Shown here: piece by piece, positions 11,501 to 14,500 of the stretch
Layout of the letters: each line of letters begins with the position of its first letter
How positions within the stretch are numbered: the first letter of the stretch is position 1
From: Nostoc sp. DedSLP01
Lineage (GTDB): Bacteria; Cyanobacteriota; Cyanobacteriia; Cyanobacteriales; Nostocaceae
Assembly: GCA_034530875.2 (NCBI GenBank)
Contig: JAVRCJ020000012.1
Span: forward strand, 1 to 64,000
Length of the DNA stretch: 64,000 nucleotides
Reading direction: 5' to 3'
Program-made: the position numbers

Positions 11501-14500
11501 CATCGACACAGTATCCGTGTTTGCTAGAATGACTCCAATCAGTACAGCAGGAATCCAGTCTAGTCCCAGCCCAAATTTAATCGAAACCGCGATAATTGCC
11601 GAAGAAAAAATAGAGCCGGGACCTGCTAAAAGGGCGATCGCTTTAAAAGTGCTGCGAAGACGGCTGATATCAGTATTGATAGATGCCTCAAAAATCAGAA
11701 TCGGCAGAAAAAGGTTTAATACTAAGGACGGATCTAACCCAATGCGATGCGACCAAAGTTCTGTAATGGGTAACCCTGCCAGCACTAAGCCTGTTACATA
11801 AGGAATTCGTAGTCGCTGAGTTATCAATGCAACAGCAGTTGCAATCAGTAGCAAAATAATCAAAATGATGACCAGTTCTGGAATGCTTCCTGCCGTTTGG
11901 CTAGCTACAGCAGAATTGCTGTCCAAAGGAGTTTGTTGCGCTACTATCCATCCCATTGCCGATCCTCCTTCCATAAAGTGCTTTCCTCAAAGAGAAGTTG
12001 AAGAATTGACTACTGTTTGAGTTTACAGGAGGGCATACCCTGGTGGATGCAGTGTAATTGGATGAATGTTAATGAAGCTAAAACACGATGTTGGGCTTTG
12101 TTGAGCGATTATCGCGCATCTCGGCTCAATACCTGCATTCGAGATTGCGAAATCTCTGTTTTCATCTGTTGCAATTTTTGTAGTATATTGTATTATATGA
12201 ATATCCTGCGTGTCCCAACTCGTGTGAGCCTACATACTAGTACGAGAGGAAGGTAACGCTGCCAAATGCAGTGCGCGTTTGCGAACGAGGAGTGCGAAGA
12301 ACCTGGAAAGTCGGCTTAGAAGTAGCCATCTTTGAAAGAGTGTGTAACAACTCACCAGCGGAGTCCCTCTAGTAACTGAGAAAACGCAATGCTCCACCAA
12401 CTTGCACGCGGGAAATAATTTGTAATTCGTAATTTGTAATTCGTAATTAAGAAGGTTATACGAATTGGAAAAAATAATGCGATAAATCAGTCATTTGTAG
12501 AGACGCGATTCATCGCGTCTTCACCTAAGGATATGTTGCGATCGCTAATTGAATTTGTATTAGATTTTATCCAGATTTTAGCATTGTATTTGTAGCGTTA
12601 TTTTAAATAATTCATATTAGTTATGACTAACATATTTCAGCTAATCAACCAAATTGCTAACGCAGAAGGACAGTTGTGTAATACTCAATTTCTTGCACCT
12701 TGTGTAAAAGGTGGACGAGTTCGCACGCGAGTAGCAGGGATGGTCTACACTTTCAGACCAAAGCCTAGTAAATTTGAAGGTTGGGGTATCTTTCAAGCTG
12801 TGGATGAGAAAACAGCAATGGTTGTGGAAGAGGCAGATTTACCTCAAATAGCCGAATACCTGCAACACTTTCCCCAAATACGGTTGCGGTTAGCATACCA
12901 ATTGCAAGGACAAACTTGGTTAGCGTACCCTGTAAATGAAGCAGATATGCGTCAACGGTTGCACGTAGTTAAACCGATCGCCATTCATTTAGTAAGCGAA
13001 GGTATCATCTTTGACCAGATTATCGCCCGCTGGAATGGAAATTCCTGCTGGTTTGAAGAAATCGATCGCCGCACAGATCCCGCTATTGTTGAAACTCTGC
13101 AATCTGCGCTTAAGGAACTCGTTCCCGTTGAAGAATTGCAGTTCAAAGGTATGACGCCAGAAATTCGCACAGTGTATGAATTAGCAACTGCGCGGATTGA
13201 GGAATTCGATCGACCCAAACAGGATGAAAAGCGGCTAAGAAAAGCATTGCAGATGGGCGGCGGCGAATTAAAGCAATTTCAAGACCGCGGCGACTACTGG
13301 ACAGTTGACTGGACAACCGCTGATGGCGTTCGCCACAGTAGTGCGATCGCTAAAACTGACTTGACTGTAATCAGTTCTGGTATTTGCCTAAGTGGATACG
13401 ATCGCGACTTCGACTTGCAATCTTTAGTTGCTGTCATCGAACAACAAGAGTGGTGAATTCAGAATTCAGAACTCAGGAGTCAGAAGTAAAACAGGTTTAA
13501 TACCGAGTACACAATCTAAAATCCAAAATCTAAAATCTAAAATCGAATGAGTGTCTTTTTTCACGAACAGCTTTACCGCAGCAATGCTGTGATGGCAAAA
13601 TTGAAAAACTATCCTGTAACAATTTGTGGGGCGGGAGCATTAGGAGCTAATATTGCGGAAAACTTGGCTCGGTCTGGTTTTGAGAAACTTACAGTCATTG
13701 ACCGCGATCGCATTGAGGAACGTAACCTTTCCACCCAACCTTACTACCGTTCTGATGTGGGAGCATTCAAAGCCAAAATCTTGGCGAACAATTTATATAG
13801 AGCAATTGGTACTAAAGTTGATGCCAAAACCAAAGAATTGACATCAGCAAATGTAAATCAATTAATTCAAGATAGTCAGCTAATTATTGATGTTTTTGAC
13901 AATAGTATCGCCCGTCAAATACTAAAAGATTATGCCGATAAATTTAGCATTTCTTGTCTTCATGTTGGATTAGCGGCTGATTATGCAGAAGTGATTTGGA
14001 ATGAAGTTTATCGCGTGCCTTCTGAGGTAAATGATGATGTTTGCGATTATCCCTTAGCGCGAAACTTAGTAATGTTAACCGTTGCTGTAGCATGTGAAGC
14101 GATTGTCTCATTCATTGCCACAGCAGAACAACGTAACTTCACCATTACCTTAAAGGATTTGACTGTTCAATCTCTGTTTTTTTAGATGGCGAGGAAATCA
14201 AACAAGATAGTTAATTTATTTTAAGTCGTCCAGTCAAACAAGCAACTACAAGTAATAGTCGAGATGGTTCGACGGGTTTGGCTAGATGCACTTGGAAACC
14301 TGCACTTAGAGCCTCTCCACGTTCTCGATCTCTGGCGTGGGCGGTAAGTGCTACGGCGGGAATTTGTCCTCCTGATTCAGGACTCAGCGCCCTTACCTGA
14401 CGAATTAGCGTATAACCGTCTTCCTCTGGCATACTGATATCAGACAAAAGTAAGTCATATCCACCAGGGTTTGCCGTTAGGATTGATAATGCTTGCCTTG

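Follow-up and report, generated by a model that had tools for sequence, protein, structure and literature searches.

The genes g02856 and g02857 of Nostoc sp. DedSLP01 form the end of a conserved cassette, whose four genes, encoding a putative ubiquitin-like protein (Ubl), a Ro60-like protein, g02856 and g02857, are inherited together and are colinear across phyla. In the source Nostoc the cassette is pulled apart and its JAB peptidase gene is lost. With slightly better than even confidence, the cassette is read here as a new pathway for activating and conjugating the Ubl, integrated into a Ro60-like ribonucleoprotein (RNP), in which g02857 would be the E1 and g02856 an RNA- or target-binding carrier, possibly E2-like. 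The following features were located in the window, the whole 64,000-nucleotide stretch of DNA that was analysed:

4414..4488, + strand: tRNA-like element upstream of the Ubl gene (Rfam tRNA 51.7 bits; ARAGORN anticodon att)
4634..4834, + strand: g02848, 66-aa putative Ubl with a free C-terminal Gly; first cassette gene elsewhere
5319..6086, + strand: 255-aa protein, matching no family of Pfam, NCBIfam, PADLOC or PHROGs; accessory
6119..6193, + strand: another tRNA-like element, 5' of the genes for the L7/L12 paralogue and the Ro60-like protein
6382..6783, + strand: L7/L12 paralogue (Pfam Ribosomal_L12, E 2.9e-24); accessory
7102..8535, + strand: Ro60-like protein with a helical TROVE-like part and a vWA domain; Pfam reports vWA only
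12203..12413, + strand: ncRNA directly 5' of g02856, with an SRL motif (12238-12249) and a GTPase-associated-centre (GAC) mimic (12303-12358)
12623..13456, + strand: g02856, ORF with a predicted N-terminal helix, two OB folds, helix, meander, Cys255 loop and C-terminal helix
13547..14185, + strand: g02857, minimal ThiF/E1-type adenylating enzyme, 212 aa (Pfam ThiF)

Distribution and organisation of the cassette

The earlier note had described g02856 as a 277-aa ORF without a family and g02857 as a ThiF/E1-type ORF preceded, together with g02856, by an SRL and GAC RNA. Both ORFs were recovered at these positions, 90 nt apart on the + strand, and the RNA was found 5' of the pair, where its GAC mimic matches Rfam LSU positions 1093-1148 with 51.4 bits against a cut-off of 50. 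Sequence related to this ncRNA was present in 5 of 20 larger cyanobacterial loci, and a GAC mimic lies upstream of the Ubl gene in planctomycete locus L055. The RNA was rejected as an obligate neighbour of g02856, as the exact SRL motif occurs within 1.5 kb in 2 of 29 other loci. Matches to tRNA beside the Ubl gene and upstream of the Ro60-like gene were obtained in loci L056, L062, L063, L072 and L160. The two accessory proteins are found in some of the 15 genomes with larger loci (L7/L12 paralogue, 4; 255-aa protein, 6). The Ro60-like protein has no Pfam TROVE match, and its residues 25-317 match a TROVE domain protein in the PDB weakly (9l5y/9kop, E 0.0014).

The distribution of the genes was determined in 150 other Cyanobacteriales genomes (151 with the source genome). 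Homologues of g02856 were detected in 58 of the 150, strong Ro60-like matches in 59 (three more were weak, with E > 1e-5) and strong g02857 matches in 58, in addition to a copy interrupted by stop codons and a 72-aa relic. A record labelled 'Nostoc punctiforme' contains g02857 as well. The Ubl gene g02848 was detected in 55, nearly always 1-4 kb from the Ro60-like gene, and 53 genomes contained all four genes. The previously reported co-occurrence was replicated, with 57 genomes holding both g02856 and the Ro60-like gene, one holding g02856 only (G026, 75% complete) and two the Ro60-like gene only (G009, 850 contigs; G148, 570 contigs). The g02857 copy of G148 is the one broken by stops, and g02856 was not found in that genome; in G149, g02857 is present as a relic only. 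As judged from sequence, both genomes carry apparent signs of joint decay of the system genes. An AAA+ ATPase was rejected as a core part, since the 73 of 150 genomes that have it comprise 50 of the 58 that hold g02856 and also 23 of the 92 that lack it.

Co-occurrence of this kind might reflect a shared mobile island, a caveat raised previously, in which case g02856/g02857 and the Ro60-like genes would be fellow travellers with no functional link. The distribution is indeed patchy, with g02856 in one of seven other sampled genomes of the same family, and copies reside on plasmids (pAfl69, a Leptolyngbya plasmid and a Kovacikia record) and on phage-type contigs. However, the genes also co-occur when dispersed over one chromosome at distances of hundreds of kb to Mb: G067 carries them at three separate places, g02856 and g02857 are 186 kb apart in G059, and the pair lies far from the Ro60-like gene in G004 and G129. 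This persistence despite dispersal speaks against a shared island as the sole cause. The cassette also has different flanking genes from locus to locus, and its gene order and strand are retained, at 30-50% identity, in phage contigs and four other phyla. The explanation is disfavoured and is considered very improbable.

Related loci were searched for with a 23-sequence g02856 alignment. The colinear cassette, in the order Ubl, Ro60-like, g02856, (JAB peptidase), g02857, was observed in Planctomycetota, Chloroflexota, Myxococcota, Desulfobacterota, IMG/VR contigs and one GenBank record deposited as phage (LR756511.1, 595 kb). Scored as the same strand and within 2.5 kb downstream of g02856, g02857 follows in 48 of 51 cyanobacterial or unnamed loci, in keeping with the operon described before. 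Among non-cyanobacterial loci with enough flank, g02857 was downstream in 17/17, the Ro60-like gene upstream in 11/12 and the Ubl gene present in 9/10. The IMG/VR contigs have the same gene order (g02857 20/21, Ro60-like 20/21, JAB 14/21); their IMG/VR class is linear or provirus, and a Pfam terminase (Terminase_6N) was detected in one of five records. The statement that the system occurs almost nowhere else holds inside the cyanobacterial sample but not beyond it, where the cassette is widespread.

No JAB peptidase was known to the earlier note, and none was found in any cyanobacterial locus examined; a JAB gene of the cassette type is absent from the window and, with this query, from G000. 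Outside the cyanobacteria, however, a Prok-JAB peptidase gene lies between g02856 and g02857 in 12 of 20 loci. The four that were tested all scored 29-41 bits against the Pfam Prok-JAB cut-off of 25, and the translations carry the HxHx7SxxD metal motif. With this peptidase, the Ubl/E1 reading gains its missing piece.

Together, the phyletic match, the co-occurrence when dispersed and the colinear operon in four other phyla and in phage-type contigs strongly support the view of g02856 and g02857 as core partners in the Ro60-like system. The proposal of a larger multi-protein system was also supported, and the system extends further than described, into other phyla, IMG/VR contigs and the 595-kb phage.

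The OB-fold protein g02856 and its conserved cysteine

The AF2 model of g02856 (pLDDT 95.8, pTM 0.80) predicts OB fold 1 at about residues 22-70, OB fold 2 at about 84-150 and a long helix at 179-212, followed by a C-terminal part made of a four-strand meander (215-251), the Cys255 loop and a helix (265-274). The OB folds match S17, IF1/eIF1A, S1/CSD, RNase II and Mpa. In the predicted structure, g02856 combines two OB folds, a type known from RNA-binding and ribosomal proteins, with a small C-terminal domain containing Cys255. This residue is part of the motif SAGICLSGxDxxFDLxSLV and is positioned four residues past strand 248-251 in the model. Among 106 diverse sequences, Cys255 is conserved in 99% and D264 in 100%. 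The family comprises 751 clusters at 50% identity.

No match to g02856 was obtained in Pfam (E 0.1 or better), NCBIfam, PADLOC or PHROGs, and the ESM Atlas gave no usable match. Its relatives (106 sequences) hit no Pfam family at E 0.01 or better, and the C-terminal parts of 27 sequences returned nothing relevant in Pfam up to E 10. Among relatives of intermediate length, a zinc ribbon (P0122) or a GATase_5 piece (P0243) is present. An apparent fusion within a 1240-aa NRPS, covering 26% of g02856, was set aside as a probable gene-call artefact.

None of the profile or fold searches put g02856 among the E2 proteins. The Prok-E2_B profile, found in 1 of 151 genomes, matched no g02856 gene in any of the 151. 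PDB profile searches with g02856 returned no E2 chains (chance-level rows only), and none was among the best 50 VIA rows. The HPN motif is absent before Cys255. The G-I-C-L-S stretch presumably resembles an E2 active-site motif. Bacterial non-canonical E2s depart from canonical features in the sections cited from PMC1779556 and bioRxiv 10.1101/2024.11.21.623953, the latter describing such proteins without the C-terminal helix pair.

The E1-type enzyme g02857 and its candidate substrate

The E-values reported previously for g02857 were reproduced, at 5.4e-27 for Pfam ThiF (PF00899, 94.9 bits against a cut-off of 28.1) and 1.1e-18 for the E1 part of the PADLOC E1-E2 models. The nucleotide-site residues GAGALG, D52/D54, K75, D115, D118-N119 and R123 are invariant in close and distant homologues, and the D-N...R motif aligns with that of the active adenylation domain of Uba1. 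The arginine of the NLxRQ motif is missing; g02857 reads N60-L-S-T-Q64, with Thr63 in place of Arg. Close homologues read NLSTQ, and distant ones retain N60, T63 and Q64. In Uba1, the stretch is aligned to NLNRQ in the active domain and to DLSTQ in the inactive one. Cys166 in DDVCDYPLARNL is invariant in 31 close and 34 distant homologues. The cited part of bioRxiv 10.1101/2024.11.21.623953 places E1 catalytic cysteines in the crossover loop, as for C250 of UBA5. No CxxC zinc motifs were present in g02857. By the Pfam match and these nucleotide-site motifs, g02857, which carries the invariant Cys166, is assigned at the sequence level to the E1/ThiF adenylating superfamily.

The free terminal Gly noted earlier on g02848 was confirmed: the tail RP(E/Q)A(V/I)(F/Y)G is followed by a stop in 18 of the 18 sequences listed, from cyanobacteria, Planctomycetota, Chloroflexota and Myxococcota. 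No family was assigned to g02848 in Pfam, NCBIfam, PADLOC or PHROGs, and the ESM Atlas yielded unnamed clusters only.

ThiS, MoaD, TtuB and CysO are small carriers that become thiocarboxylates, and Mec+ clears CysO adducts. By analogy, g02857 might adenylate g02848 for conversion to a thiocarboxylate, a sulfur donor that would thiolate, for example, the tRNA-like or rRNA-mimic RNA held by g02856, with Cys255 as a persulfide relay and JAB clearing adducts. Among NCBIfam models, the short ThiF models PRK08644 (1.7e-28) and TIGR02354 (1.1e-24) match g02857 best, the Ubl has a free terminal Gly, and g02856 combines RNA-type OB folds with an invariant cysteine. JAB genes also accompany ThiS/MoaD-type carriers among the operon types listed in the cited part of Iyer et al. 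2006 (PMC1779556). Nevertheless, both ThiF matches fall well under their curated equivalog cut-offs (99.7 vs 159 and 87.5 vs 152.2, respectively), and ThiF proper was rejected. The structures of ThiF (6e-8) and MoeB (3e-8) are no nearer to g02857 than those of Uba1, Tcd1 and MccB (1e-12 to 1e-13), and the Ubl tail is (F/Y)G instead of GG. Additionally, no rhodanese, cysteine desulfurase, PP-loop thiolase or PLP enzyme was detected among conserved neighbours in 15 cyanobacterial genomes or among the 99 ORFs scanned of 137 listed in seven viral-type loci. A sulfur-carrier function is accordingly regarded as unlikely.

TcdA/Tcd1 act on t6A in tRNA, whereas MccB adenylates a peptide end, the microcin-C-type substrate ending in Asn. 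The substrate of g02857 could likewise be a group on RNA or a peptide end, with g02856 presenting RNA and g02848 serving another role. Tcd1 (9hmp, E 9.6e-14) is the second-best solved relative of g02857 and also lacks the NLxRQ arginine (LNTH), with MccB following at 7e-12; tRNA-like RNAs are part of the cassette, and g02856 has OB folds. Such a substrate would leave the strict (F/Y)G end of g02848, the in-operon JAB and both invariant cysteines unexplained. The match to the NCBIfam TcdA model is far under the cut-off (E 4e-9, 36.5 vs 304), and the peptide version is opposed by a g02848 terminus of Gly rather than Asn. We consider a substrate other than the Ubl quite improbable.

The preferred reading remains activation and conjugation of the Ubl. 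We infer that g02848 is the substrate of g02857, and the role of g02856 as follows. Using ATP, g02857 would adenylate the terminal Gly of g02848, which would then be passed as a thioester, possibly via Cys166 of g02857, to Cys255 of g02856. The latter would serve as an E2-like carrier, anchored through its OB folds to the RNA or RNP made up of the Ro60-like protein, the tRNA-like RNAs and the SRL/GAC RNA. The Ubl would be attached to a target in or at the Ro60-like particle and, where JAB is present, could be stripped off again. Several points speak against this reading: g02856 has no E2 match, the STQ of g02857 is shared with the inactive Uba1 domain, no cyanobacterial locus has a JAB, g02848 matches no Ubl family, and 8 kb separate the Ubl and E1 genes in the window. 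A predicted g02857-g02856 complex scored 0.01 against a mark of 0.32, run without control pairs, and is evidence neither way.

A more specific and speculative version, to which we give a low probability, casts g02856 as a Ubl ligase guided by RNA: the tRNA-like RNAs and the SRL/GAC mimic in the Ro60-like particle would hold the protein in place. The ligase might transfer the E1-activated Ubl onto translation factors or ribosomal proteins drawn to the ribosome-like decoy. Alternatively, the acceptor might be the RNA itself, with an ester formed at a ribose hydroxyl of the tRNA-like 3' end, in effect an 'aminoacylation' with an entire protein. Such a ligase might serve both bacteria and giant phages in conflicts over the translation apparatus.

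Relation to known systems and significance

The eukaryotic UFM1 pathway (UBA5, UFC1) has a minimal E1, a minimal E2, a single-Gly Ubl and a ribosome-linked target. The cassette resembles it in the minimal E1 and the single-Gly Ubl; the sequence relation observed is that of the E1 superfamily only, with UBA5 matched at E about 1e-6. Bil (BilABCD; Iyer type 6d) and Bub (types I and II) are described in the cited parts of PMC1779556 and bioRxiv 10.1101/2024.11.21.623953 as small operons with a terminal-Gly Ubl, an E1-type enzyme, a JAB/JAMM peptidase and a small non-canonical carrier, with no E3 encoded and with a patchy, mobile distribution. In contrast to these, the E1 here is a protein of just 212 aa that lacks both an inactive adenylation domain and a CYS domain, the candidate carrier has no E2 family match and is fused to two OB folds, and JAB is optional. 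The present cassette also includes a Ro60-like TROVE/vWA protein, is accompanied by tRNA-like (in some loci also rRNA-mimic) RNA genes, and has no DUF6527 gene inside.

Like the PADLOC E1-E2 models, Cap2 chains of type II CBASS in the PDB (2e-6 to 1e-7) match the E1 part of g02857; the PADLOC match spans the Rossmann part only. Cap3 of that system is a JAB that reverses conjugation, as stated in the cited part of bioRxiv 10.1101/2024.11.21.623953. Unlike CBASS, the cassette has no E2-E1 fusion and no CD-NTase, and it has a separate Ubl, which is absent in CBASS. The PADLOC Cap2 model PDLC00844 was matched at E 1e-30 or better in none of the 151 genomes, and also in none of the control genomes. 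ThiF/ThiS, MoeB/MoaD and TtuC/TtuB share the short single-domain E1 of about 200-250 aa and the small carrier, but the cassette contains no partner biosynthetic enzyme or thiolase, its Ubl tail is (F/Y)G rather than GG, and its setting is that of an RNP instead of cofactor synthesis.

Bacterial Ro60 (Rsr) with YrlA-type Y RNA and the phage ROT/TROVE RNA-repair modules likewise place a TROVE-type protein beside tRNA-like RNA, also in large phages, and the cited parts of PMC4201824 and PMC7824862 mention no E1, JAB or Ubl partners. The Ro60-like protein described here differs in escaping the Pfam TROVE model and in being tied to a Ubl/E1 cassette.

Bacterial Ro60/Y-RNA particles are RNA quality-control scaffolds. 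Protein conjugation by bacterial Ubl pathways (CBASS Cap2/3, Bil, Bub) has been shown only recently, and their targets are mostly unknown. No paper linking the two was found in the literature searches made, and the cassette suggests a previously undescribed connection of protein tagging with RNA quality control. If the preferred reading is true, a minimal E1, a Ubl, a JAB, an OB-fold/Cys protein and a Ro60-like protein would together make up a new branch of Ubl signalling in prokaryotes, one whose conservation spans cyanobacteria, planctomycetes and a 595-kb phage and which likely acts on RNA and the translation machinery. For mechanistic studies the cassette would offer an E1 system among the smallest, and it would give the 'hidden' Ro60-like proteins a testable function.

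Window layout and co-occurrence in Cyanobacteriales

The ORFs of g02856, a protein without a family, and g02857, a ThiF/E1-type enzyme, were found where the earlier note had placed them. They are shown below with the putative ubiquitin-like protein (Ubl) g02848, the Ro60-like protein and the RNA elements carrying a sarcin-ricin loop (SRL) and a GTPase-associated centre (GAC).

Features of the window
4098–4181: sub-threshold Rfam tmRNA match (33.2 bits against a gathering score of 47), just 5′ of the first tRNA-like element
4414–4488, + strand: first tRNA-like element, upstream of g02848
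4634–4834, + strand: g02848, 66-aa ORF ending in RPEAVYG-stop
Between g02848 and the second tRNA-like element, + strand: 255-aa ORF without a family
6119–6193, + strand: second tRNA-like element
Between the second tRNA-like element and the Ro60-like gene, + strand: L7/L12 paralogue (Pfam E 2.9e-24)
7102–8535, + strand: Ro60-like, vWA-containing protein; residues 25–317 have a weak match (E 0.0014) to a TROVE-domain protein of solved structure
Between the Ro60-like gene and the SRL/GAC RNA, mixed strands: TrkA-domain gene, Na+/H+ exchanger, 127-aa ORF without a family (transport-type genes)
12238–12249: SRL motif, in the non-coding stretch upstream of g02856
12303–12358: match to bacterial LSU rRNA 1093–1148 (51.4 bits; gathering score 50), same non-coding stretch
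12623–13456, + strand: g02856, 277 aa
13547–14185, + strand: g02857, 212 aa

Among 150 other Cyanobacteriales genomes, g02856 was identified in 58, the Ro60-like gene in 59 by strong matches and in 3 more by weak ones, g02857 in 58 by strong matches (plus a stop-broken copy and a 72-aa relic) and g02848 in 55, with all four present in 53. The overlap reported in the earlier note was recovered: g02856 and the Ro60-like gene together in 57 genomes, g02856 alone in one (a 75%-complete bin) and the Ro60-like gene alone in two (fragmented assemblies). No P-value is given for the co-occurrence because related genomes are not independent. More weight is carried by co-occurrence when the genes are scattered, and by gene order outside cyanobacteria. 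The genes for g02856, g02857 and the Ro60-like protein occupy three sites of the single 7.2-Mb chromosome of genome G067, 186 kb separates g02856 from g02857 in G059, and the pair lies far from the Ro60-like gene in G004 and G129. Pure hitch-hiking on a single island is nearly excluded.

Two further genomes, judged by their sequences, look like stages in the decay of the system. G148 holds the Ro60-like and Ubl genes and a stop-interrupted g02857 (contig C23:15745–16178), while g02856 was not found there; the sole remnant in G149 is the 72-residue g02857 relic (C66:11889–12104).

The cassette in other phyla, viral-type contigs and a plasmid

A scan for the motif FDLQSLVGV in one genome per species gave 403 relatives of g02856 that could be confirmed; 80 of them were retained. 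Twenty of the 80 loci belong to Planctomycetota, Chloroflexota (Ardenticatenales, Thermoflexales), Myxococcales and Desulfobacteraceae or other Deltaproteobacteria, and there the genes run along a single strand in the order Ubl, Ro60-like, g02856, g02857. The smaller Ro60-like and Ubl fractions in cyanobacteria indicate that the cassette is often split in that group.

Gene linkage around g02856 relatives. Denominators are loci with enough flank; g02857 was counted up to 2.5 kb downstream, except for 7 of the 20 IMG/VR cases, which lie further away.
Non-cyanobacterial (20 loci): g02857 downstream 17/17; Ro60-like upstream 11/12; Ubl upstream 9/10; JAB 12/20
Cyanobacterial or unnamed (60 loci): g02857 downstream 48/51; Ro60-like upstream 24/42; Ubl upstream 25/39; JAB 0
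IMG/VR viral contigs (24 loci): g02857 downstream 20/21; Ro60-like upstream 20/21; JAB 14/21

The earlier note had identified neither an E2 nor a JAB peptidase. The latter is now present, as an ORF of 128–145 aa between g02856 and g02857 in 12 of the 20 non-cyanobacterial loci; Pfam, PDB profile and VIA searches with g02856 again gave no E2. All four JAB ORFs tested scored above the Pfam Prok-JAB cut-off (29–41 bits against 25), and the motif HxHx7SxxD was seen. The ORF occurred in none of the cyanobacterial loci examined, and with that query no orthologue was detectable in the studied Nostoc genome; a Prok-JAB on a different contig of that genome is unrelated. The Ubl C-terminus reads (T/I)(V/L)RP(E/Q)A(V/I)(F/Y)G-stop in 18/18 sequences inspected. 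Rfam tRNA matches adjoin the Ubl gene, 5′ of the Ro60-like gene, in loci L056, L062, L063 and L072, and a GAC mimic lies 5′ of the Ubl gene in L055.

The five-gene cassette was also recovered from 24 IMG/VR contigs of 23–467 kb, which are regarded as putative viruses, since just one of five records checked had a terminase Pfam family. The full cassette lies beside a tRNA gene array in LR756511.1 (595,163 bp, deposited in GenBank as an uncultured phage). In its locus L160 (274896–293732, reverse complement), the Ubl (4698–4895), Ro60-like (6499–7992), g02856-like (9004–9813), JAB (11204–11470) and E1 (12473–13111) genes share 19 kb with 11 ARAGORN tRNA calls, one of them between Ubl and Ro60-like.

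Several neighbouring genes were recorded at such loci. Two viral-type contigs (L139 1706–2125; L150 135–521) encode DUF6527 proteins 4–8 kb 5′ of the cassette; bioRxiv 10.1101/2024.11.21.623953 identifies this family with BubE, the serine protease of Bub operons. In L150 (10201–12082) the E1 gene is followed by genes for an AAA_33 kinase-type and a WGR-PARP protein, and NADAR, GIY-YIG, CYTH and NUDIX genes lie near the cassette of L137 (9798–16246); the themes of these neighbours are NAD/ADP-ribose and RNA ends. In Dolichospermum flos-aquae, the 69-kb plasmid pAfl69 (NZ_CP051207.1) holds a g02856 relative of 84% identity together with a ThiF-family gene and the end of a Ro60-like gene; an IS1634 transposase and a gene with a HEPN domain adjoin them.

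Sequence and predicted structure of g02857 and g02856

With 94.9 bits to Pfam ThiF, g02857 is clearly placed by its sequence in the E1/ThiF superfamily; it is not ThiF proper, since its NCBIfam equivalog scores fall under their cut-offs. In comparisons with solved structures, the ThiF-type protein 9egb/9egc, Tcd1, Uba1, UBA6, MccB and SUMO E1 all lie at about the same distance from it, and MoeB and ThiF lie further away. The nucleotide-site residues and Cys166, within DDVCDYPLARNL, are invariant across 31 close homologues and 34 more distant ones (<60% identity). A family-wide departure is the Thr that replaces the Arg of NLxRQ seen in other E1s; in alignments, Uba1 shows the resulting S-T-Q too, in its inactive adenylation domain.

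The top NCBIfam names for g02857 are ThiF, and CysO-type carriers also have JAB companions, but a ThiS/TtuB-like sulfur carrier pathway appears unlikely, as no conserved sulfurtransferase, PP-loop or PLP enzyme was found nearby in the cyanobacterial and viral-type loci scanned. A TcdA-like action of the E1-like enzyme on the RNA itself, or a MccB-like action on a peptide, is rather improbable and would leave the invariant Gly, the JAB and the two cysteines unexplained.

No match to g02856, or to 106 diverse relatives, was obtained in Pfam, NCBIfam, PADLOC or PHROGs. Its closest relatives are Nostoc proteins (93% identity), and the family comprises 1092 clusters at 90% identity and 751 at 50% (E ≤0.001), extending down to about 30% identity. 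The AF2 model from 106 sequences is of high confidence (pLDDT 95.8, pTM 0.80) and predicts an N-terminal helix followed by two five-stranded barrels (about residues 22–70 and 84–150), then a long helix (179–212), a four-strand meander (215–251), a loop and a last helix (265–274). Conservation peaks in the C-terminal stretch SAGICLSGxDxxFDLxSLV, where 99% of the 106 sequences retain Cys255 and all of them Asp264.

The C-terminal domain might be a minimal UBC fold, an idea prompted by its succession of helix, four strands, Cys loop and helix, by the likeness of its Cys-containing stretch to the E2 active-site motif, and by a published remark that non-canonical bacterial E2s lack the last two helices (bioRxiv 10.1101/2024.11.21.623953). 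Because Pfam, PDB profile and two VIA searches gave no E2, and the domain modelled alone gave a poor model, g02856 is not classed as an E2.

Accessory neighbours and a candidate Ubl pathway

An RNA 2′-phosphotransferase, KptA/Tpt1 (Pfam E 1.4e-53; above the NCBIfam cut-off), and an AAA+ ATPase of FtsH/PAN/Cdc48 type (402 aa) precede g02856 in 10–11 of the 15 cyanobacterial genomes with larger loci. In the studied genome the ATPase (400 aa; 115392–116591) and KptA/Tpt1 (121575–122117) lie 5 kb apart on contig C21 (L051, L052), not on the g02856 contig. The ATPase was rejected as a core part, being present in 50 of 58 genomes with g02856 but also in 23 of 92 without it. Among the same 15 genomes, an upstream two-GNAT protein (320 aa; not found in the studied genome) occurs in 8, the 255-aa protein in 6 and the L7/L12 paralogue in 4; a second small ORF of 66–84 aa, without a family, adjoins the Ubl gene in 7 (L032 14091–14300 and relatives). 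Ribosome recycling factor homologues (Pfam RRF E 1e-23) lie between the Ro60-like and g02856-like genes of two IMG/VR contigs (L141 4496–4969; L147 5866–6402); with the L7/L12 paralogue of the window, this makes two accessories of translation-factor type. Taken together, the accessory parts have RNA ends and the translation machinery as their theme.

Iyer et al. 2006 (PMC1779556) compiled prokaryotic Ubl-conjugation operons, and protein conjugation has since been shown for Bil, Bub and others (bioRxiv 10.1101/2024.11.21.623953). The cassette, whose E1 and JAB family membership, folds, conservation and genomic linkage are shown here, matches the signature of the operons in that compilation: a small protein with a free invariant Gly, an E1 with an invariant Cys, a JAB and a fourth protein whose small alpha/beta domain holds an invariant Cys. 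The roles of E1, carrier and reversing enzyme were given to the cassette parts on the basis of this match; we infer every chemical step, and the target, of the pathway. In this scheme, the likeliest of the readings considered, g02857 would act as the E1 for g02848, g02856 would be the carrier taking the Ubl on Cys255, its OB folds would dock g02856 on the Ro60-like protein's RNA or RNP, and the JAB would reverse Ubl attachment.

Literature searches combining Ro60/TROVE with ThiF, ubiquitin-like/beta-grasp and RNA repair returned no paper describing a Ro60-Ubl/E1 link, nor is one mentioned in the passages retrieved from surveys of prokaryotic Ubl operons, bacterial Y RNAs and jumbo-phage RNA repair. 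The system is rated as a candidate bacterial Ubl pathway whose set of partners is without precedent.
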